Assembly (NCBI GenBank): GCA_041665405.1
Contig: JBAYIZ010000005.1
Coordinates: 2,513-66,512, forward strand
DNA length: 64,000 nt
Source: Candidatus Magasanikiibacteriota bacterium
GTDB lineage: Bacteria; Patescibacteriota; Patescibacteriia; Magasanikbacterales; GWA2-37-8
Direction of reading: 5' to 3'
This document shows positions 1,926-56,196 of the stretch, piece by piece; within the stretch, counting starts at the first letter, position 1, and every line of letters starts with the position of its first letter. The notes beneath the pieces were generated by a model that had not been told where the DNA came from, did not search any database, and saw nothing but the letters and a program-made list of their open reading frames with translations. The translations under genes and the position numbers were made by a program.

Positions 1926-1995
1926 ATATTTATCGACTCACTAATATAACAATTTTTTACTAGTAAGTCAAGTATACCATAAACATAAATAATAC

Positions 1996-2170
1996 AAAAG
2001 ACCGCCCGTTGCCTAAATACAGAAACCAATTCTGAACTTAGGCAAGTGCGGGCGGTCGAGTGTCTGACCATATTCCCTTCCTTGTCTGACCTGGCGGTCA
2101 TAGGACGTCCTTTCGGACGGAACGACGGTCAACGTCGCTCTACCCCACCGTATTTCGGAGGATGGGGTGC
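1996..2170 (-). repeat. conserved ~175-nt GC-rich highly structured element, copy 1 (3' UTR of GC-rich ORF 2180..2509)
   Basis: About 90% identical to 7258..7430. On the minus strand it folds into: a hairpin CCCCAUC/GGUGGGG; a hairpin CGACG/CGUCG; a GAAA-tetraloop hairpin UCC-GAAA-GGA; GACC-GCCA-GGUC; GGUC..GACC; and a long terminal hairpin GACCGCCCGCACUUGCCUAA...UUAGGCAACGGGCGGUC followed by UUUU. Confidence 0.6.
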
Positions 2171-2179
2171 TTTTGATTA

Positions 2180-2509
2180 TCAGGCCTTCTTCCTTGGAGG
2201 GAAGATGTATGCGGACTCAGGCGAAAGAAGCCACCGATGATAGGACATCCGCATCGCCTCTGGATTTTGTCGAATTGACAGGGTAGTATCGAACCACTGC
2301 TGATAGGCTCGATTCAAGGCGTCCCCGTCTTTGCGCAACGTAGCGAGCGCAACTTGAGCCTCCTTTCGCCACACCGCTTCCTTCCTTTCTTGTGCTCTTC
2401 TAGGTTCATCCTTGGCGTCGTTGATGAACGGCAAAAACGCTACATACGCCAGGATCCAACAAAGCGCCAAGCCGAGAGTGATAGCACCCATTGCCTCGAG
2501 AATCTCCAC
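2180..2509 (-). CDS. GC-rich small membrane protein, hypothetical (foreign composition)
   Basis: 109-aa ORF with a GGAGG ribosome-binding site and an N-terminal transmembrane helix. Its Ala/Arg/Gly-rich, high-GC codon usage contrasts with the AT-rich flanks. Confidence 0.4.
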   Translation of the reverse strand: MEILEAMGAITLGLALCWILAYVAFLPFINDAKDEPRRAQERKEAVWRKEAQVALATLRKDGDALNRAYQQWFDTTLSIRQNPEAMRMSYHRWLLSPESAYIFPPRKKA

Positions 2510-2735
2510 GATTTCCTCCCTACTTCAGTGCAAAAACAAACAACAAGTTCTGCTGAGACAAACGCAAAGCAAAAAAGTTGTTTACAAAGCCAGTTCGTGT
2601 CTGAAGATTTAATTCTGCAAACATAAACTGGCTTTTGTTTTAGAGGGAATTATTAAAGAACTAATTAATTAGATAGTACTATCTATTATAGTGAGAAAAG
2701 ACAATCCAGTTGTGTATCTCTATTAAAATTTCTTA

Positions 2736-4099: not shown

Positions 4100-4219
4100 A
4101 AAATAATCGACATGAATATAATAAATCAAAGTAATATTATCAGATAATATATAAAAACAAAAGACCGCTACCAAGTGCTGATTTACAAACACACTAACAT
4201 ATTTAATAAAAAATGCAAC

Positions 4220-4293
4220 AAAAAAGACGCCTCTTTTAAAAGCGTCCTACATTGTGCAGCCGATCGGGTAAGGTAGCAAACTATTTTTGAGAT
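4220..4293. repeat. cassette-boundary direct repeat R2
   Basis: aaaaaagacgcctcttttaaaagcgtcc hairpin variant followed by tacattgtgcagccgatcgggtaaggtagcaaactatttttgag. Confidence 0.65.
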
Positions 4294-4297
4294 TATT

Positions 4298-5962
4298 TCA
4301 TCTATTATTCTGAGATATTCTTATGAAATTTTGTTTTAATAATTCATTTTTACTCATGTCTACTAATTCAGATAATGACGGATTTCCTTGATACAGAGTC
4401 CATGCATACAATGGTGTATATCCATTCCTCCTCATCCAACCAGAATGAAACTGGCCTCTAGTACGAGTAGGTAGCGATTGCCACTTAGAAAATGCCTCCT
4501 CTAATTCTTGCAAACTGAATTCAACTGAACGTTTCTGGTGCTCTCTCTGATCCTGTTTATAAAAATTCTTCTTCAAATTTTCGTCTTTACTCAAAACCAC
4601 TATATCCTCAATAGACAAACTCTTTTTCCTAGCCCATTCAACCAATCCTTTATACCCATTATGACTAAGCCAACCACGTGAAAATCCTTTCTTGTGATCT
4701 GACGTCCATTTTTTAAAAGCATTCTCTAATTCAGTTAAGGCGGATTCCATGTTTCGAATTATTCCTGGATGATACTCCTGTTTTATAAAACTATCTTTTA
4801 ATTCTTGATTATTACTGTTAACGACCAATTCTGTTAATTTTGGATTTTCACCCCTTTTTGTCCATGCATATAAATTTTCGTAACCATTTTTCCTTAACCA
4901 GGCAATACTAAAATTACCTCTTTCAATTTCTTGACACGTTTTATAAAGTTCAAATGCCTCTTCCAATTCAATGGTAGCGGAATACAAATCACGATCTTTG
5001 CCTTCATATGTTTTAAAACTATCTTTCAATTGTTGATTTTTGCTTTTCGCCACTAATTCTTCAATTGATAGATTAATTCTTTTGCCTTTTGAATCTTTCC
5101 TATATGTCCAAGACGTTAAAGCTATATGATTGATACTTAACCAACTAATATTAAAATCTCCTCTATTCTTTATGGGCAAAGCCAACCACTCCTGAAAAGC
5201 ATTCTCTAACTCTACCAAAGCAGTTTCAGGCGTTCTATTTTTCATCTCAGATATTTCTTTCGAAGATTCTCCAGTTTCAGTCGATTTGGATATTAATAAT
5301 CTAACAATTTCTTGTTTCCACTCATCCGATGATTTATTAAAAATTACCATTGAAACTTTGTCTGAACCCAAAGATTTCAATTGATTTTTTGTATACTCAC
5401 CATACTTTCTCCAATCCTCTTTTTCAACATCATGGACTACAAATGTAGCATTTCCTTCTTCGTTATTTACTAAAACTAACTTCTTTATTCCAGGAATTAC
5501 AAAAACTTTGTAGCTTAACCTCCTCATCATATTGGGTGAATTCACACCATCGTGTACCTCATATTTCAAATCTAGGTCACTGAGAATTTCAATAAGAAAT
5601 CTTGTTCTCGGTAAAATATCTTTCTCTTCTATACCAACTCCACTTCCAGGAATGATTTCCCCTTCATCAGGAGGTAGAATTGTCTCATTTTCTATCACAA
5701 TCAAATCTGGCATTAACAATGGATTCAATTCTTTTTTTACCCTTAATTCTTTTACAAAATTATTTACATCTAAATGCAGGACTGGAGCTTTATTTCGACC
5801 AACGTCAATAATACTGAGGTAATTTATGGCTCCTAACATTTCAGCTATTGTTCTTAGGCTACTATTTGGATTAGACCTAATGAGGGTAAAAATTCTTTGA
5901 CTAATTTCAAAAGATAAAGCCTCTTGAACTATCTCTGAATTTTGTTCATCGTATTGAGACAT
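4298..5962 (-). CDS. large hypothetical protein: N-terminal domain of unknown function plus five tandem ~48-aa C-terminal repeats (helicase-associated-domain-like)
   Basis: The repeats ELENAFQEW..G.FS..WL..NGY..L..W recur five times. ELE(N/E)AF...G.F..GWL resembles the HA-domain consensus. The N-terminal domain has a possible PD-(D/E)xK-like VVHDVEK. Confidence 0.5.
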   Translation of the reverse strand: MSQYDEQNSEIVQEALSFEISQRIFTLIRSNPNSSLRTIAEMLGAINYLSIIDVGRNKAPVLHLDVNNFVKELRVKKELNPLLMPDLIVIENETILPPDEGEIIPGSGVGIEEKDILPRTRFLIEILSDLDLKYEVHDGVNSPNMMRRLSYKVFVIPGIKKLVLVNNEEGNATFVVHDVEKEDWRKYGEYTKNQLKSLGSDKVSMVIFNKSSDEWKQEIVRLLISKSTETGESSKEISEMKNRTPETALVELENAFQEWLALPIKNRGDFNISWLSINHIALTSWTYRKDSKGKRINLSIEELVAKSKNQQLKDSFKTYEGKDRDLYSATIELEEAFELYKTCQEIERGNFSIAWLRKNGYENLYAWTKRGENPKLTELVVNSNNQELKDSFIKQEYHPGIIRNMESALTELENAFKKWTSDHKKGFSRGWLSHNGYKGLVEWARKKSLSIEDIVVLSKDENLKKNFYKQDQREHQKRSVEFSLQELEEAFSKWQSLPTRTRGQFHSGWMRRNGYTPLYAWTLYQGNPSLSELVDMSKNELLKQNFIRISQNNR

Positions 5963-6088
5963 TTTGATGAGGTTAAATATAGAAATATTATATCTGTTTT
6001 ATGTTTAATTGTCTATTTATAAAATAAATTAATGCGCAAAAAAACTACAATTTGAGTGGCAAACTCCATTTCAGCAGTTAATAGAGAT

Positions 6089-6164
6089 AAAAAAGACGCC
6101 TTTTGATAAAAGCGTCTTTACATGTGCAGCCGATCGATTAAGGTGGTAAACTATTTTTGAGAAT
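6089..6164. repeat. cassette-boundary direct repeat R3
   Basis: aaaaaagacgccttttgataaaagcgtctttacatgtgcagccgatcgattaaggtggtaaactatttttgagaat. Confidence 0.65.
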
Positions 6165-7108: not shown

Positions 7109-7170
7109 AATAATGTCATTATATCAAACTTTATAAAGTTTGTCAAATATTGGTATACTTTATAAAGTTA
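7109..7170 (-). promoter_or_regulatory. Fic promoter with a twice-repeated 14-bp palindrome (putative autoregulatory operator)
   Basis: On the minus strand: TTGACA-N17-TATAAT, then 9 nt to the ATG (near-leaderless). The perfect palindrome AACTTTATAAAGTT overlaps the spacer (7126-7143), and a second copy, ACTTTATAAAGT, is at 7157-7168. Confidence 0.5.
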
Positions 7171-7171
7171 T

Positions 7172-7247
7172 AAAAAAGACGCCTTTTGATAAAAGCGTCT
7201 TTATATGTGCAGCCGATCGGGTAAGGTGGCAAACTATTTTAGAGAAT
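7172..7247. repeat. cassette-boundary direct repeat R4
   Basis: aaaaaagacgccttttgataaaagcgtctttatatgtgcagccgatcgggtaaggtggcaaactattttagagaat. Confidence 0.65.
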
Positions 7248-7257
7248 ATTTAAAAAC

Positions 7258-7430
7258 AAAAAACCGCCCGTTGCCTAAATACAGAATTCAATTCTGAACT
7301 TAGGCAAGTGCGGGAGGTCGAGTGTCTGACCAATTCCCTTCCTTGTCTGACCTGGCGGTCATATGACATCCTTTCGGACGGAACGACTCTCAGCGTCGCT
7401 CTTCCCCACCGTATTTCGGAGGATGGGGTG
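7258..7430 (-). repeat. conserved ~175-nt GC-rich structured element, copy 2 (3' UTR of GC-rich ORF 7440..8114)
   Basis: Same hairpin series as copy 1. The differences fall mostly in loops: UUGACC vs CUGAGA in the second hairpin loop. Confidence 0.6.
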
Positions 7431-7439
7431 ATTGGTGGT

Positions 7440-8114
7440 CTAGTCTTCGACCACCTTAAATGGCGACGGCCGGTTACCCATGACAATCGCCGAGAAAGAC
7501 TCAACCGTAACTTGCCCGTTGGGCGAGATCACGGTCAACTTCTCAATGATTCTCAGGGCATCGACCACAGTCAGCCGAAGCCGGCTTCCGTAATCGCCCT
7601 GATAGAGCTCAACCGATGGATGAGCCCGAAACGGTCCGAAGAAATCCGAGCGTGAAAACGAACCGAAGTACGCTTCCACACGCCATTTTCTTTCGAACAG
7701 CACCTGTCCGATCCAGAGCGTGGGGGCGACCGGCCCCCAACCCGAAAGACGCATGATGATGACGGGCTGGTCGCCGGGTTTGGATGTAGCGTATTCGTTT
7801 TGCCTGACACCCACGGAGTACGGAAAGATCTGGCGCACCAGTTTCCCTTCCGCGTCCAGCTCAAACTGAGCTTTGTACCCGCGCACGTTACGCCGCCACC
7901 ACTCCCTCAGCCACCGCGTCCAACCGCCTTCATAGAAGATGCCGACCGACCAGATGGCGAAGATCCACCAAGCCGCCGCCATGGCGATGCCACTCTCCAC
8001 CTTGTAGATCAGTTCAGCGCTAATCCCGATGAGGACAGCGATGAAGACGCACAGGCAGAAAGTGCCGCAGCGCACCGGGGTCTTCGGATCCTGAACCTTA
8101 CTTTCCTTTGACAT
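7440..8114 (-). CDS. GC-rich membrane protein, hypothetical (two TM helices plus ~130-aa soluble domain; possibly bPH-like)
   Basis: 224-aa ORF with a strong GAGGAG ribosome-binding site. TM segments FCLCVFIAVLIGISAELIY and AAAWWIFAIWSVGIFY. High-GC codon usage. It is the sole cargo of the tRNA-proximal cassette. Confidence 0.45.
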   Translation of the reverse strand: MSKESKVQDPKTPVRCGTFCLCVFIAVLIGISAELIYKVESGIAMAAAWWIFAIWSVGIFYEGGWTRWLREWWRRNVRGYKAQFELDAEGKLVRQIFPYSVGVRQNEYATSKPGDQPVIIMRLSGWGPVAPTLWIGQVLFERKWRVEAYFGSFSRSDFFGPFRAHPSVELYQGDYGSRLRLTVVDALRIIEKLTVISPNGQVTVESFSAIVMGNRPSPFKVVED

Positions 8115-8190
8115 GGGTTCTCTCCTCGTCAGATGATTTGACGGGTTAAAAATTATTATACATTCTAAAAAATCATTTGTCTATCAAAAT

Positions 8191-8225
8191 AAAAAAGACG
8201 CCTTTTGATAAAAGCGTCTTTATTG
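8191..8225. repeat. R5: the native copy of the repeat hairpin (tRNA terminator), abutting the tRNA 3' end
   Basis: aaaaaagacgccttttgataaaagcgtctttattgtgca runs directly into the tRNA acceptor stem. Confidence 0.65.
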
Positions 8226-8297
8226 TGCACCCATTAGGAGTCGAACCTAAATTTTCGGCTTCGCAGGCCAATGTCCTATCCATTGAACGATGGGTGC
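8226..8297 (-). tRNA. tRNA, hand-folded as tRNA-Arg (anticodon GCG); anticodon call tentative
   Basis: Reverse complement: GCACCCA-TC-GTTC-AATGGATA-GGAC-A-TTGGC-CTGCGAA-GCCGA-AAAT-TTAGG-TTCGACT-CCTAA-TGGGTGC-A. All four stems pair. U33 and A37 are present. No encoded CCA. Confidence 0.75.
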
Positions 8298-11871: not shown

Positions 11872-12030
11872 AATTTTCTCTAAAGATTGACGCCTCACAG
11901 ATATGAATTTTCTTGCGCTCAGACTAGCACCGAATTGTGGGTTTTACAGACAGCCATATTTAGTTCTCGGTGCTTCGGACAGTTCGCGCGGCGAAAATTA
12001 ATATCTGTTCGGCTTACTTTATTATATTTT

Positions 12031-36329: not shown

Positions 36330-36394
36330 AAGCGAAGTTTGTTCGCACTCTTTAGAATCTTCCTGGATTTTGAAGAGTGCGCACAGCTTCGTTT
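36330..36394 (+). promoter_or_regulatory. 65-nt imperfect hairpin in the leader of the GC-rich UPRT-like gene
   Basis: AAGCGAAGTTTGTTCGCACTCTT...AAGAGTGCGCACAGCTTCGTTT; GGAG ribosome-binding site 11 nt before the ATG. The GC content rises here, so the hairpin probably belongs to the insert. Confidence 0.4.
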
Positions 36395-36445
36395 GATTTC
36401 ACCAACCCACACCGTCGCTGAAGTAGCGATTGGAGATTAGAAGCC

Positions 36446-37267
36446 ATGGCCGAAAAGACTTACATGTCCCTGACTGCAGCCCCCGGAGAGATCCACCACA
36501 TGTACGGCGACAACGTGCACCTGATGCACGACCCGCTGGCCCTGACGTGGCTCGCCCGGCTGTGTCATCCGTCCTGCGTGCAGCCCGAGATCAATCGGCT
36601 CATCACCCTGCTGTACCAAAACCTCGTTCGCGAGGTGATCAACCGCGAGCTCCCGCGGCGGATCGTGCGCTCCGAGACCCGCATGCGCGAGTACACCGAG
36701 CACGGCTACTACGACGGCATCGTCATCGACCCCGACTTCGAGGTGACGACCGTCGACATCATCCGGGCGGGCATGTTGCCTTCGATGGTGTGCTACGACA
36801 GACTCAACGAGATCCTCGACCCCAGCCGCGTCCGCCAAGACCACATCATGATGAGCCGACTGGTCAACGTCGACCAACAGGTCACGGGCGCCGGTCTCTT
36901 CGGCAACAAGATCGCTGGTCCGGTCGCCGGTCGGTTGATCTTGTGCCCGGATCCGATGGGGGCTACTGGTGGTTCCATGGTCGAGGCCGTGCACTTCTAC
37001 ATGAACGAACTGGACGGACCGCCGGAGCGTTTCTGCACGCTGAACCTGATCATCACCCCGGAGTACCTGAAGAAGATCCAGAGCGAGTTCCCCGACGGCC
37101 TCGTGACCGTCTACGCGTACCGCCTGGACCGTGGCTTGTCCGACCCCGACGTGCTGGCCGACATCCCCGGCGCTCAGTGGGACCGCGAACGCGGCCTGAA
37201 CGATCGCCAGTACATCGTGCCGGGCGCCGGCGGCATGGGTGAGATCATGAACAACGCGCTGTCGTGA
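36446..37267 (+). CDS. divergent uracil phosphoribosyltransferase-family protein, GC-rich foreign gene (273 aa, insertions and extended N-terminus)
   Basis: IIRAGML.SMV resembles Upp ILRAGLGM. LILCPDPMGATGGSMVEAV resembles Upp ALIVDPMLATGGS. RQYIVPGAGGMGE resembles Upp GYIIPGLGDAGD. Three long overlapping ORFs on both strands are typical of high-GC coding DNA. Confidence 0.55.
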   Translation: MAEKTYMSLTAAPGEIHHMYGDNVHLMHDPLALTWLARLCHPSCVQPEINRLITLLYQNLVREVINRELPRRIVRSETRMREYTEHGYYDGIVIDPDFEVTTVDIIRAGMLPSMVCYDRLNEILDPSRVRQDHIMMSRLVNVDQQVTGAGLFGNKIAGPVAGRLILCPDPMGATGGSMVEAVHFYMNELDGPPERFCTLNLIITPEYLKKIQSEFPDGLVTVYAYRLDRGLSDPDVLADIPGAQWDRERGLNDRQYIVPGAGGMGEIMNNALS

Positions 37268-37292
37268 TAGACAGCGAAGGAGGACAACGTGT

Positions 37293-37330
37293 CGCCCCTT
37301 CTCCTCCCTTGTCGGGACGGAGAAGGGGCG
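37293..37330 (+). terminator. GC-rich hairpin 3' of the UPRT-like gene (actinomycete-style; no U-tract)
   Basis: CGCCCCTTCTCC...GGAGAAGGGGCG. Confidence 0.35.
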
Positions 37331-37379
37331 GCGCATTCACTTAAATCAAAAAAAAATTAATTGTTTTTTTAATTTATAC

Positions 37380-45770: not shown

Positions 45771-45930
45771 ACAGAATAATTATATAAAAATAAACGAAAA
45801 AAGTCAAATAAACTAAAAGAACATCAACTAGTGATGTTCTTTTAGAGACGGGCGACTAATTCAAGTCGCCCTTCCCCCCTTTGGTGGGCCGCGTCCAACC
45901 TTGTGGTTCGAACGTGGCCACGTTGACTAT

Positions 45931-46680
45931 CTACGCCCGCATCTCCTGCAGGCGCTTCTCGATCTCGGCCAGACGGACGCGAATCGTCTGGTAATGAGAA
46001 CGCAACTTCTCCATGGTGATGTCGAGCTCTCGAATGACCCCTCGCTCGATCTCAACTTCGGCAGGCGTGATGATCGGGGTCTTCCTCCGCCGCCATTCGC
46101 CATCTTCCAACAACCTGTCGTTCAAGGCAAGCTGGAGACGATAGGCGGCGGCCTCGGTTCGGACATATCGTGGCTCTAGGGCATGCATCTCGTCGACGAG
46201 ATTGCACGCCTCAGCGATCAGTTCGTCCTCTTCGACCGACACGACGTCAGCTTCGTCGGCTACGCGTTCGACTTCGACGTCTGGTGAGTGCTCCGACTTC
46301 TGTTCGACAGTCTCTTCTGCCTTCTTCAGTTGCTGGAAAAACTCCTCCGCCCTCAGCCCTGGTGGAACTATCAGGTGGAACGATGCCCGAGAGTTCCGGT
46401 CAGTGGAAGCCTGAACCCAAACCAAGACAGCTGTGGGTCCTTCTGCCATTCTGATGCTGATGCCAGGCGAAGGTGCCGGTCTGATCTTGGTGACAAACCG
46501 AGCCCTGAACACACCCTCAAACCCGGCGCGTTCAAGAAGACTCGCCATCGCCTTGGCCGATTCAGCAATCCATTGGCCGTTGCCTGCTGGCCTCTTGATT
46601 TCCACTCGAACCTTGCACATGTTGCCTCCTGCAACGTTGCGTACAGACACCCCAAACGACGACCTCCGCCGAAGGGACAT
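45931..46680 (-). CDS. GC-rich hypothetical protein (N-terminal ~100-aa domain, acidic linker, C-terminal coiled coil); foreign composition
   Basis: 249-aa ORF with multiple shadow ORFs. The likely start is an internal Met (MCKVRVEIKRPAGNG). No recognised domain. Confidence 0.4.
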   Translation of the reverse strand: MSLRRRSSFGVSVRNVAGGNMCKVRVEIKRPAGNGQWIAESAKAMASLLERAGFEGVFRARFVTKIRPAPSPGISIRMAEGPTAVLVWVQASTDRNSRASFHLIVPPGLRAEEFFQQLKKAEETVEQKSEHSPDVEVERVADEADVVSVEEDELIAEACNLVDEMHALEPRYVRTEAAAYRLQLALNDRLLEDGEWRRRKTPIITPAEVEIERGVIRELDITMEKLRSHYQTIRVRLAEIEKRLQEMRA

Positions 46681-46720
46681 TAGAACCTACATTAAAAATG
46701 GGGTTTTGTCAATACTCAGT

Positions 46721-52391: not shown

Positions 52392-53117
52392 TTATTTTCC
52401 AATATAACTAATTTCGTCCTCATGCAAACGACGCAAACCAGCGTCGTTTGTCATTTCTTCATAAATATGAGCTACCAACCCAGGTACGCGAGCGGTGATA
52501 AAAATCCCTTTCATCATGTCTGGATCAAAACCCATATCCGCCAATATTGCTCCCATAGCACCGTCAATATTTAATGGTAATTGTTTTGAAGAAATTTTAT
52601 TTAATTCTTTTTGACTATCAACAGCCACTTGGCAGGCTTGTTTAAAAAACCCAGTCTTTTTGGCAATTTTTAGAAGCTCTTCCGCGCGTTCATCTCTCTC
52701 CAATACTGCATGTCCAAATCCAGCCAAACGCACTTTTTTGTCCTTTAGCTCTCCAATGGTCTGAACCAAATTTTTATTTTTTATATTTTTCAAAAAGAAT
52801 TTAGCGGCATTTTCGATTGCGCTACCATGCCTTTCTCCCATCGCTAGAATACCAGCAGTAAGAGCAGTATGCATACTATTTTTGGCTGAGGCCACAATAC
52901 GCGCAGTCATGGCTGAAGCGGTACCAATACCATGATCAATGGCCGCGGTAAGCAGAGCATCCAACATTTTAGTTTCTTTCGCTTTAGGCATTCTCCCCTG
53001 CCAAATTAAAAAAATAGTTTCTGTAAAAGTATTATTTTTAATCAAACCAGACAATTTTTTGCCACGAATAGTTTCTTTACCACTATTAACATTAGTAATT
53101 TTTGTTTCCCATTTCAT
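52392..53117 (-). CDS. citrate-synthase-fold small protein (citryl-CoA-lyase-like / ACL C-terminal-domain-like)
   Basis: LAGFGHAVLERDERA matches the CS-family catalytic GFGH.VY...DPR. 241 aa covers only the C-terminal CS region. Confidence 0.55.
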   Translation of the reverse strand: MKWETKITNVNSGKETIRGKKLSGLIKNNTFTETIFLIWQGRMPKAKETKMLDALLTAAIDHGIGTASAMTARIVASAKNSMHTALTAGILAMGERHGSAIENAAKFFLKNIKNKNLVQTIGELKDKKVRLAGFGHAVLERDERAEELLKIAKKTGFFKQACQVAVDSQKELNKISSKQLPLNIDGAMGAILADMGFDPDMMKGIFITARVPGLVAHIYEEMTNDAGLRRLHEDEISYIGK

Positions 53118-53267
53118 AATATTTTAAAAAAGTATTAAAGCCGATTAAATATTAATTTTCGCAGTGCGAATTGTTTGAAGTGGCGAGAATCAAACAAGGC
53201 TGTCTGCAATAAGATAAATTCGCCACAAGTCTGAGCACAAGAAAATTCATATTTATGAGGCGTCAAA

Positions 53268-54164
53268 TCATGCGAAAGGCTTAATCTTAGTTACTAAATC
53301 CTCATAAGTATCCGCAATCAATACCCCCACAGACTTCAAAGCCGCTTTCTTTTCCTCCGCACTTTGCCCCTTACCAACAATCGCCCCCGCATGTCCAATG
53401 TTCATTCCCTCTGGAAATAGATTAGCAAATTTACCTCCAATATACACCGCCAATGGTTTGGTCCATTCTTTATTTTTGATCATATCTACTATTTCGAATT
53501 CATATCCTCCACCATGTTCACCGAAAATAACCACCGCTTTGGTTTGTTCGTCTTTTTCAAACAATTTTAACAAGTCAGCATAAGTGGTACCCATTAAAAG
53601 GTCGCCGCCCACATGTACCGCTGTACTTTGTCCTAGACCAGCTTTGCGAATTTGCCATGATAATTCGTTGGTCATACCACCAGATCTAGAAATCACTCCA
53701 ATGCTACCAGGCTGAAAAACTTCATTAGCCAAACTTAATGGACCGCCCACTACCCCAATCCTCCCCTCTCCTGGACTAATATAGCCAAGTGAACTAGGAC
53801 CAATCAGGCGAATATTTTTTTCTTTGGCGGCCGCTAAACAATAGGCAGTATCTTGAATGGGAATTCTTTCAACGATGGTATTTATAATTGCGATATTATT
53901 TTCAATCGCTTCCAATATCGCCTCCTTGGCGGCAAATGGTGGCACATAAATTGTAGTGGTAGAAATATCGGGATGCGCCGACATTGCTTCTTTTACCGAA
54001 TTGTAAACTGGCACTCCTTCTACAATTTCTCCACCTTTGCCGGGACGCACACCGGCTATCACTTGAGTACCATATTCACGCATGGCCGCCGCCGCTTTTT
54101 GCCCCTCTTTGCCAGTAATCCCCTGTACCAAAACTTTAGTATTTTTATTTATTAAAATCGACAT
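53268..54164 (-). CDS. sucD: succinyl-CoA-synthetase alpha-type subunit (CoA-binding plus phosphohistidine)
   Basis: MSILINKNTKVLVQGITGKEG, SRSGGMT, NIGHAGAIV (catalytic His loop). Confidence 0.8.
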   Translation of the reverse strand: MSILINKNTKVLVQGITGKEGQKAAAAMREYGTQVIAGVRPGKGGEIVEGVPVYNSVKEAMSAHPDISTTTIYVPPFAAKEAILEAIENNIAIINTIVERIPIQDTAYCLAAAKEKNIRLIGPSSLGYISPGEGRIGVVGGPLSLANEVFQPGSIGVISRSGGMTNELSWQIRKAGLGQSTAVHVGGDLLMGTTYADLLKLFEKDEQTKAVVIFGEHGGGYEFEIVDMIKNKEWTKPLAVYIGGKFANLFPEGMNIGHAGAIVGKGQSAEEKKAALKSVGVLIADTYEDLVTKIKPFA

Positions 54165-54167
54165 ATA

Positions 54168-55310
54168 TTATTTGTTTATCATATCAACTAAAACGGCGGC
54201 AGTCTCGCCCATGGCTATTTCTTTACCAAAAATTTTTAAATTTAAATTATTTCTTTTCGCACATTCTTCCATCAGTCGTTTACCTTCAACTTCATTGGGT
54301 CCAGCCCTACGAATTACGATAGGATAGCTCGGTTTAACTTCATCTAGCGCGTCAATAATTCCACTAAAGGTAGCGGCTATATCTGTAAAGTTGGCCGTTC
54401 CGCCAGCAATCCATAAACCACGTAATCCTGGTTTTGACAGTACTATTTTAGCTAATTGATAAACTTTTTCTCGAGGAGGATTACCAGAATATTCGGTGTA
54501 ATTGTCCGGTTTTAAACCGACTTGAATGAGTGCGTCCATATTGGCAATACTAGCACCGCCTCCAGAAAATAATACGGCCACATCTCCATCCATTTCAATA
54601 TATTTACCAGCTGTACCACGATAATAATTTTCACCTTCATCGATTTTTTTCACTTCTATTTCTCTTTCAGTCGGCAAACGACCAAGCATAGTGCGTGGTT
54701 CAAAATTCCAATCTTTATGACGATAAAAAGCATCCTCATCTAAAGCTATTTTGGCATCAGCCGCCACAAAATTTCCTTCAACAGTTTTTACCAATGGATT
54801 GATCTCCACCACTCGAGCATCGCTTTGCAAAAAGCAACGCCACAACTCATTGGCAAAAGGAATATCTGAATTTATTTCAGATTGTCTGATATCCAAATAT
54901 TGTTTTTTGATTTTTTCTTCTGACACATCTTCAATATCCATACCACCATCTTGAGAATATACTAGCACCGGCTGTTTTTTATTAGTGTCATAGGTAATAG
55001 ACAAATAATGCTCAGCTTCAATATTTAATTTTTCTTCCATCAATACTGCCGATACATATTGTCCACGGATATTACTAGCAAAAATTTTCTCGGCTGCCTG
55101 TTTGGCCTCAGCTGGTGAAACGGCAAATAGAATTCCATTATTTTTACCGCGCTTACCAGATAAAACCTGGGCTTTCAATACTACTCCCGCTATACCTAAC
55201 TGATTATATTTTTCTATAACATTATCTTCACGGCGTAACAAAACAGACTTTGGCACCGTAATACCAAACTTGGAAAAAATATTTTTTCCTTCAAATTCGT
55301 AAAGATTCAT
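54168..55310 (-). CDS. sucC: succinyl-CoA-synthetase beta-type subunit (ATP-grasp); C-terminal half divergent
   Basis: MNLYEFEGKNIFSKFGI resembles the SucC MNLHEYQAK. The track ORF starts 32 codons earlier and overlaps the upstream gene; ATG 55310 leaves a 1-nt gap. The GIIDALDEV...IVIRRAGPNE region is SucC-like, but the central segment (NYYRGTAGKYIEMDGD) is atypical. Confidence 0.7.
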   Translation of the reverse strand: MNLYEFEGKNIFSKFGITVPKSVLLRREDNVIEKYNQLGIAGVVLKAQVLSGKRGKNNGILFAVSPAEAKQAAEKIFASNIRGQYVSAVLMEEKLNIEAEHYLSITYDTNKKQPVLVYSQDGGMDIEDVSEEKIKKQYLDIRQSEINSDIPFANELWRCFLQSDARVVEINPLVKTVEGNFVAADAKIALDEDAFYRHKDWNFEPRTMLGRLPTEREIEVKKIDEGENYYRGTAGKYIEMDGDVAVLFSGGGASIANMDALIQVGLKPDNYTEYSGNPPREKVYQLAKIVLSKPGLRGLWIAGGTANFTDIAATFSGIIDALDEVKPSYPIVIRRAGPNEVEGKRLMEECAKRNNLNLKIFGKEIAMGETAAVLVDMINK

Positions 55311-55311
55311 A

Positions 55312-56196
55312 TTAGTTGCTATTCCACCTAGAAAAAATACCACAAGGTAACAAACGTTCACTATTACTTTCAGCGATAGCCAATTCTCCTTTCTCCAACT
55401 TACCACCGTACTTTGTAACTAACGATAACAAATTATTTTCATAGGCAATGGCTGAATAGCCGCTGGCGTAGCCATTAACTAAAAAGAATAGTGGATCGTC
55501 TGATAAAATTTGAGAACACAGATCTATTAAGCCAACAAAGTCTTTTTCTACCTTCCACATCTCCCCTTTTGGTCCATGACCAAAAGCTGGCGGGTCCATT
55601 AGGATACCATCATATTTTTTGCCACGCTTTACTTCACGTCGGACAAATTCTACTGCATCATCTAGTATCCAACGAATTGGTTTTTCTCGAAGCCCAGACA
55701 GCTCAGCATTATCTCTTGCCCAACCAATAGCTACCTTCGAACCGTCCACATGACAAACCTGTGCTCCAGCTTGAGCGCAAGCCAGACTAGCACCGCCAGT
55801 ATAACCAAATAGGTTCAGCACATTAATTTCTGGCTGATTGGGTAAACGTTTATTAATCATTTTGCGCATCCAGTGCCAATTACCTTCTTGTTCTGGAAAA
55901 AGTCCCGTGTGTTTAAAGGCAGTCGGACGAATATGAAATTTTAAACCACCAAAATTTATTGTCCACTTTTCTGGAGTACCTGGTTTTATTTTCCAATCGG
56001 CGTTGCGACCGTCGCGCACAAAAACCGCGTCAGCATCATTCCATGTTTTTACTGGTAAATTTTTCTTCCATAACGCTTGGGGATCAGGACGTCGAAAAAC
56101 TACTTTCCCGTAGCGTTCGAGTTTTTCACCATCACCACTGTCTAAAAGTTCATAATCTGGACTTGATGGGGTCGATAAAATAGATAGGTTTGACAT
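55312..56196 (-). CDS. class I SAM-dependent rRNA methyltransferase (RlmI/YccW-like)
   Basis: NLFGYTGGASLACAQAGA (motif I), ILMDPPAF (motif IV). N-terminal PUA-like region. Confidence 0.65.
   Translation of the reverse strand: MSNLSILSTPSSPDYELLDSGDGEKLERYGKVVFRRPDPQALWKKNLPVKTWNDADAVFVRDGRNADWKIKPGTPEKWTINFGGLKFHIRPTAFKHTGLFPEQEGNWHWMRKMINKRLPNQPEINVLNLFGYTGGASLACAQAGAQVCHVDGSKVAIGWARDNAELSGLREKPIRWILDDAVEFVRREVKRGKKYDGILMDPPAFGHGPKGEMWKVEKDFVGLIDLCSQILSDDPLFFLVNGYASGYSAIAYENNLLSLVTKYGGKLEKGELAIAESNSERLLPCGIFSRWNSN

Follow-up and report, generated by a model that had tools for sequence, protein, structure and literature searches.

Two unrelated open reading frames (ORFs) on the AT-rich chromosome of an ultra-small bacterium, a member of Candidatus Magasanikbacteria in the Candidate Phyla Radiation (CPR), are each followed by nearly the same structured, GC-rich sequence, which raises the question of what this common tail is and how it came to stand behind two different genes. 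The locus lies in a 64-kb stretch of DNA (64,000 nt, referred to here as the window) with an overall GC content of 37.1%. A preliminary description of the window, made from the letters alone, read the tail as a conserved structured RNA attached to unrelated cargo ORFs, and proposed either a small mobile unit or a shared cis-acting 3' RNA, that is, a stability element, ribozyme or recombination site. Here, we find that a new ribozyme or a mobile element is a less likely reading of the tail than a shared 3' untranslated region (3' UTR) with a transcription terminator, which is the most likely one.

Results

Two GC-rich modules with a common 3' tail

Each module consists of an ORF and the tail behind it, and ORF109, ORF224 and both copies of the element are all on the minus strand:

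1991-2172, minus strand: element copy 1, the 3' tail of ORF109 (repeat search and fold; 229.5 bits with covariance model R1)
2180-2509, minus strand: ORF109, 109 aa, with a single hydrophobic segment at the N-terminus and a helical, charged tail (hydropathy)
2510-2530, minus strand: short 5' leader at the beginning of the GC-rich stretch of module 1, with GGGAGG 5 nt before the GTG (read from the sequence)
7253-7433, minus strand: element copy 2, the 3' tail of ORF224 (93% identity to copy 1; 223.4 bits with covariance model R1)
7440-8114, minus strand: ORF224, 224 aa, with two N-terminal transmembrane helices, from a small uncharacterised family

A 175-nt element with an approximately 90% identical copy at 7258-7430 had been described. 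The repeat itself stands, at the corrected positions above, with a length of 179-182 nt and 11 mismatches and 1 indel across 179 nt, and is far beyond chance. Blocks of 24-31 nt are identical in both copies, and the element has its 13 differing columns distributed rather uniformly over its length. Similarity between the copies stops at the element edges: the ORFs, leaders and flanks are unrelated, and modules 1 and 2 share no 5' regions. The copies are 5.26 kb apart with ordinary AT-rich genes between them, and the tail has a GC content of 50-53% in a 37% GC genome. In both modules the element starts approximately 10 nt past the stop codon, in agreement with the earlier observation that it follows within 10 nt of the ORF.

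The tail is non-coding. No reading frame persists past the 1-nt indel between the two copies. Read-through from ORF109 and ORF224 was rejected, given that the two would enter the tail in different frames, as was a small ORF behind AAGGAAGGG (AUG in copy 1, UUG in copy 2), for which the stops differ and three of four changes are non-synonymous.

In 200-nt windows the GC content is 0.23-0.385 before module 1, 0.53-0.545 inside it (2001-2500) and 0.26-0.33 after it, and the highest 150-nt window reaches 0.56. The sharp step noted for 1996-2530 is thus real, although the figure of more than 60% GC given for it is not; only module 2 reaches such values (0.62-0.63). ORF109 has the GGAGG-type ribosome-binding site (RBS) that had been reported, here GGGAGG at 2520-2515, with a GTG start and a TGA stop. 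A promoter scan of 2510-2735 found no good match to a sigma-70-type promoter. Among 5.8 billion proteins the sole match to ORF109 is itself (a 103-aa JGI gene call), and no Pfam, PHROG or PADLOC family scores above cut-off. The putative coding status of ORF109 rests on the RBS, the hydrophobic N-terminus and the pattern of GC by codon position (GC1/2/3 of 0.56/0.44/0.59).

ORF224 is a real gene. HMMER, run in full against 1.84 billion cluster representatives, gave seven distant relatives with 31-38% identity, which have in common the two N-terminal transmembrane helices and the family motif GW..WLREYW.RNVRG. These homologues come from several samples and include L013 3331-3990, L014 4080-4775, L017 113-793 and L022 4001-4831. 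Five of the relatives are distinct and readable, and each is followed by an unrelated 3' hairpin. The genes are clearly GC-elevated in four of these five (51-62%), on contigs of 42-45% GC with a CPR-like look, and mildly so in the fifth (47.6% versus 41.7%); one relative adjoins the end of a tRNA gene. The family seems to consist of rare membrane proteins that travel as a GC-rich insert. As had been claimed, the second copy of the tail follows a different cargo ORF: ORF109 and the ORF224 family are unrelated by comparison and hydropathy.

The ORFs of both modules and the tail are foreign in composition. GC3 is 0.59 for ORF109 and 0.71 for ORF224 against 0.21-0.36 in neighbouring host genes, which bears out the foreign look first ascribed to the GC-rich blocks.

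Other GC-rich inserts on the contig

Besides modules 1 and 2, the same contig carries at least four GC-rich single-ORF blocks. One block at 36330-37345 (plus strand; 63% GC, GC3 0.88), between an aspartase/fumarase-like gene and ruvA, contains a uracil phosphoribosyltransferase (UPRTase) gene (36446-37267) that has 78% protein and 78.7% DNA identity to a Myxococcota gene over exactly the ORF span. The match suggests a transfer between phyla, and may also hint at what the host is. For Patescibacteria, horizontal acquisition of genes from diverse donors has been documented (PMC12455944). A related Magasanikbacterium (L024) has a GC-rich upp (58% GC) with a conserved 3' hairpin at the same locus, and hence GC-rich genes can be long-term residents.

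A GC-rich (58%) single ORF at 45840-46700 (minus strand) lies between ileS and rpiB and has its own GC-rich 3' hairpins. It is listed with 249 aa, although the true start is probably an internal AGGAGG-ATG, and no match to it was obtained in Pfam, PHROG or PADLOC. Immediately beyond the left edge of the window, two GC-rich mini-units with ORFs of 64 and approximately 76 aa are found on L018 (12020-12300 and 12395-12750). Their RBS is GGAGG or GGAG, a TTGACA -35-like box precedes the second unit, and each lies between AT-rich upstream DNA and a second host terminator repeat family (AAAAAAGCCGCATGTTTAGCGGTTTTTTT and AAAAAACTGCTAAATTTAGCGGTTTTTT).

The tail folds on the sense strand and ends like a terminator

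The fold of copy 1 contains the following features:

~2168-2142, 2140-2120, 2118-2107 (GAAA loop) and 2100-2087, minus strand: short hairpins (fold)
2057-2000, minus strand: long terminator-like hairpin, followed by a U-tract at 1999-1991 (fold)

On the sense strand, copy 1 folds with -82.7 kcal/mol (z = -6.6) and copy 2 with -68.1 kcal/mol (z = -4.0), and the antisense strand folds 6-7 kcal/mol weaker. For the first ~110 nt without the terminator hairpin the z-scores are -3.0 and -1.6 (sense) and -0.9 and -0.3 (antisense). The terminal 23-24-bp hairpin and the U-tract thus account for most of the folding signal, with the rest marginally better than shuffled sequence, and the fold is beyond chance in part only.

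Five or six hairpins, a GAAA tetraloop and a 20-bp stem with a U-tract had been described; we recover four short hairpins and the long one, the GAAA loop and the U-tract, and find a stem of 23-24 bp with interruptions. The hairpins present in both copies are ACCCCAUC/GGUGGGGU; GAGCGAC/GUCGUUC, with its three differences all in the loop; CGUCC-GAAA-GGACG, in which G-U replaces G-C in one copy; and UGACC-GCCA-GGUCA. The long interrupted hairpin is followed by UCUUUUGU in copy 1 or UUUUUUGUUUUU in copy 2, and the U-tract lies on the minus (coding) strand, with none on the plus strand. Both copies have the form of an intrinsic terminator, a GC-rich hairpin with an immediate U-tract on the coding strand at a gene end, and are predicted to work as one. 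A simple terminator scanner left the long hairpin unflagged because bulges interrupt its stem.

Whether the differences between the copies concentrate in loops, as had been proposed, depends on the structure used. Two of the 13 differing columns are in paired positions of the two-sequence consensus, which makes for a circular test, as opposed to nine of 13 in the fold of copy 1 alone, where six break a pair. The consensus fold of the two copies gives no covariation support for the conserved RNA that had been suggested: the 55 predicted pairs contain no compensatory changes, two changes from G-C to G-U and one broken pair.

A separate intergenic repeat of ~130 nt with host composition is present at 11887-12015 (plus strand) and 53138-53266 (minus strand) with 78-84% identity, immediately upstream of pth in one case and, in the other, of a gene encoding a citrate-synthase C-terminal domain. 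A single long interrupted hairpin is predicted by RNAalifold, one of 28 pairs with six compensatory double changes between the two copies, and there is no Rfam match, making this repeat a candidate for a new structured 5' leader RNA. The six compensatory pairs mean that covariation is detectable here when copies have diverged enough. Between them, three adjacent genes at 52392-55406 (minus strand) encode ATP-grasp_2 with a citrate-binding domain, CoA-ligase domains and the C-terminal domain of citrate synthase, a set that resembles ATP-citrate lyase or citryl-CoA synthetase/lyase and is probably uncommon in CPR genomes.

Searches for further copies and known RNA families

Further copies in this or other genomes had been anticipated, and none was found. 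The covariance model R1 detected no third copy on the 66.5 kb of contig with search filters off, nor a further copy over all fetched loci. The large collections were scanned for exact 19-30-nt patterns only: five element blocks of 19-30 nt gave one chance match, in a GC-rich phage, among viral contigs; two blocks gave no further copy in 185,579 species genomes; and one block gave nine matches in JGI metagenomes, all of them chance matches of the 20-mer only, on contigs of 66-74% GC, none an Rfam RNA. A blastn search of phages and plasmids gave no further copy either. Two copies on 66.5 kb, with none in the other collections scanned, speak against the small mobile unit of the preliminary description.

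The ribozyme, or any other known RNA, found no backing in a cmscan-type Rfam check, in which no family matched the element even at E = 10 as an accepted hit; the best scores (E 0.38-7) were to eukaryotic miRNA, snoRNA and lncRNA families and were taken as noise, and within the window only two tRNAs were at the Rfam threshold. Several specific candidates were also rejected. A likeness of the core (CCAGGUCAG...GGAAGG) to SRP RNA helix 8 has no Rfam support, and for a GAAA tetraloop receptor (CCUAAG/UAUGG), CCUAAG forms part of an ordinary helix and copy 2 no longer has UAUGG. The differences between the copies are not adenine-specific and no reverse transcriptase domain is present among the window ORFs with a Pfam match, which speaks against the template/variable pair of a diversity-generating retroelement. 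For a retron non-coding RNA the same reverse transcriptase result applies, and the element flanks pair (a1/a2-type) in copy 1 only. A miniature inverted-repeat or IS-derived element was discarded because there are no terminal inverted repeats, and the junctions show low-complexity T-rich 5-7-mers only (read from the sequence) where a target-site duplication would be expected.

The modules lie in a variable island next to tRNA-Arg

Modules 1 and 2 are within a variable island that extends from tRNA-Arg (8225-8297) to tuf, with all island genes on the minus strand. An ENA contig (L001, k141_1224158, 73.9 kb) is 100% identical to the window and reaches 2.5 kb past its left edge, toward tuf. Two further features are needed here:

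802-879, 4217-4294, 6087-6164, 7170-7247 (minus strand at 7170-7247) and 8184-8220: host repeat D1, 37-78 nt (repeat search)
8155-8183, minus strand: promoter-like site TAGACA-17-TATAAT, 11/12 matches, AT-rich and just upstream of the GC-rich stretch of module 2

D1 consists of an AT-rich terminator hairpin and a conserved 40-nt spacer, and bounds module 2 on the 3' side, 5 nt from copy 2 (the D1 copy at 7170-7247). In four of the five copies it also has GGCTGCACA, a sequence similar to the 3' end of the neighbouring tRNA-Arg. There are five same-strand slots, and in each of them D1 comes after the stop codon of the final gene, which gives a cassette-like array adjoining tRNA-Arg, with no integrase in sight near the array; a scan places a terminator-like site at 8221-8194, in a D1 copy. 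Module 2 exactly fills one D1-delimited slot behind the TAGACA-17-TATAAT site, which is predicted from its sequence to work as a promoter. Module 1 is situated between a P-loop kinase-like gene and hicB/hicA, and hicB/hicA have their own predicted promoter after the tail. The downstream host genes each have their own predicted promoter past the tail, and the tail is hence no leader for downstream genes.

No phage genes and no PHROG matches were found around the modules. The context is one of chromosomal core genes, and core functions in the window include ribosomal proteins, thymidylate synthesis, ABC transporters, isoleucyl-tRNA synthetase and RuvA. ORF554 (4298-5962, minus strand) contains four to five tandem protein repeats of ~75-79 aa (DNA period 225-237 nt) with the motif ELE.AF..W......RG.F...WL..NGY..L..W, and has no significant Pfam family.

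Discussion

A proposed 3' UTR acquired with two genes

We see roughly an even chance that the tail is a common 3' UTR with an intrinsic terminator, which two foreign genes brought with them from a shared source pool. Of the readings first offered, the shared cis-acting 3' RNA or stability element fits best, given a non-coding sense-strand 3' tail with a terminator-like end. We infer termination, stabilisation and co-transfer from a common source as follows. ORF109 and ORF224 would be single-gene units, each acquired horizontally by the Candidatus Magasanikbacteria chromosome. The tail would be transcribed as the 3' UTR of each mRNA and act in cis, where the last hairpin and U-tract would end transcription and the stacked short GC-rich hairpins (~110 nt) would probably shield the 3' end from exonucleases. 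The source gene pool from which the common tail would derive may have been the genome of a donor or else a transfer vehicle. Many genes there probably had the tail behind them as a widespread extragenic or terminator repeat, and it would have travelled with each gene.

The UPRTase-Myxococcota match is independent support for transfer into this genome, and the relatives of ORF224 are again GC-elevated in CPR-like contigs. The better fold of the sense strand and the two of 13 differing columns that change G-C to G-U also favour this explanation. However, no donor or third copy was found in the scanned collections, which counts against the source-pool repeat, and the long interrupted hairpin went unflagged by the simple scanner. 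The exact spacing of ~10 nt from the stop in both copies looks more like cassette design than like a randomly placed extragenic repeat, and GC3 values of 0.59 and 0.71 are not what one donor predicts.

Alternative explanations

The cassette-like features could instead mean that the tail works at the level of DNA, as a site of capture or recombination similar to integron attC, at which a hairpin-recognising recombinase encoded elsewhere inserts promoterless ORFs. Each module has a leader of 20-35 nt, one small ORF with no or few relatives and a structured element at a fixed distance past the stop, the units measure 0.54 and 0.9 kb, and module 2 occupies precisely one slot of the repeat-delimited array by tRNA-Arg. 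The GCCTAA/TTAGGC arms in the long hairpin (read from the sequence) recall attC arms. We nevertheless consider such a site unlikely. A regular-expression scan of both copies with 30 nt on each side found no RYYYAAC or GTTRRRY attC core sites on either strand. The element has no terminal inverted repeats (best end-to-end inverted match 11/20), and its ends do not pair with each other, the fold consisting of several local hairpins instead. No recombinase, transposase or reverse transcriptase domain is present among window ORFs matching Pfam or in the gene tables, which include the 2.5 kb beyond the left edge. The recombination site of the preliminary description therefore finds no support in core sites, inverted repeats or a recombinase. 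The AT-rich genes between the distant copies also count against a capture site, and the U-tract points to a role at the RNA level.

A regulatory RNA would make the tail either a 3'-UTR-derived small RNA or a switch that acts through its CCUCC and AAGGAAGGG stretches to control translation of its own or other mRNAs. Alternative pairings do exist, in which CCCAUCCU pairs locally with GGUGGGG or over a long range with AGGAAGGG; GGUCAGAC is present twice in the element, and the identical blocks and the favoured sense strand would suit such a function. In spite of this, it appears improbable: compensatory changes are absent from the predicted pairs, the even spread of differing columns is as for neutral divergence, the fold without the terminator is hardly better than shuffled sequence and there is no Rfam relative.

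The common origin of the copies could also be local. The tail could have been copied within the genome through ectopic recombination or gene conversion, or a gene inserted just upstream of a resident copy, with the tail having a terminator role only. The only two copies share both their orientation and their location, a variable island of 8 kb, and the island is rich in repeats able to drive recombination. However, the copies have diverged by 7% and share no flanks, and the equal distance to the stop codon at both junctions would be rare for random ectopic events, making local copying a doubtful explanation.

A more far-reaching proposal, and to us a very unlikely one, sees in the tail the signal by which a hitherto undescribed CPR cassette system would capture or mobilise its cargo, dropping promoterless foreign ORFs with a structured 3' site into host 'expression slots'. 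An AT-rich promoter together with a repeated terminator, for instance D1, would make up each slot. If true, it would explain the at least six GC-rich single-gene inserts on the contig.

Finally, the preliminary description had allowed for GC-rich contaminant contigs mis-joined into an AT-rich genome, which is extremely improbable despite the sharp composition steps, given that other assemblies carry the same modules and junctions and that host-type promoter, RBSs and terminators fit the inserts. Over 1,528 nt that span module 2 and both AT/GC junctions, a JGI contig (L002, sample 3300037810) is identical. A Logan contig (L019, run SRR6484324) has 100% identity to window 2101-804, across the junction between the element and hicB; it begins inside a 31-nt block common to both copies and ends in D1, as expected because repeats cause contig breaks. 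An NCBI metagenome-assembled genome carries ORF224, and ORF109 and the UPRTase gene are on record (JGI and NCBI, respectively) on a 68,186-nt contig. Hence, a chimeric join is unlikely, with the modules present in three other assemblies, although their samples may not be independent of one another. No empty-site allele was seen in other strains, and every fetched ORF224 or hicB contig has the adjoining module.

On its own, the tail is a two-copy orphan 3' UTR of modest interest. It gains value from its context, a streamlined CPR genome with at least six GC-rich single-gene inserts in 66 kb. Being common to two inserts, it is the only sequence clue that ties separate acquisitions to a common source or mechanism, and it could be used as a probe for the donor or vehicle, and possibly for the host of the episymbiont.

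Comparison with known systems

The modules resemble integron gene cassettes in being small, single-ORF foreign units with a short leader and few or no relatives; as with attC, unrelated ORFs have a conserved structured element right behind their stop codon. In contrast to attC, the tail has no R''/R' core sites, forms several hairpins rather than one bulged hairpin, measures 179 nt instead of 57-141 nt and ends in a U-tract terminator. There is no IntI or attI here, and the copies are not adjacent but 5.26 kb apart, farther than the ~4 kb used as the span for at least two neighbouring attC sites.

REP/BIME, ERIC, pneumococcal BOX and Neisseria Correia elements are likewise structured repeats behind unrelated genes, and can terminate transcription or stabilise mRNA. 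The tail differs from such repeats in having two copies on 66.5 kb and a composition foreign to its host; it has no terminal inverted repeats or target duplications, and no REP-type transposase was seen in the 66.5 kb.

Similar to phage morons, the modules stand between resident genes as inserted, self-contained transcription units whose composition deviates, with the predicted order promoter-ORF-terminator in module 2. Unlike morons, they are located among bacterial core genes and not in a prophage, and a common 3' tail is no moron feature.

Compared with 3'-UTR-derived small RNAs such as CpxQ and SroC, the tail is without signs of processing, targets or conservation; what it has in common with them is a structured 3' UTR that ends in the mRNA's own intrinsic terminator.
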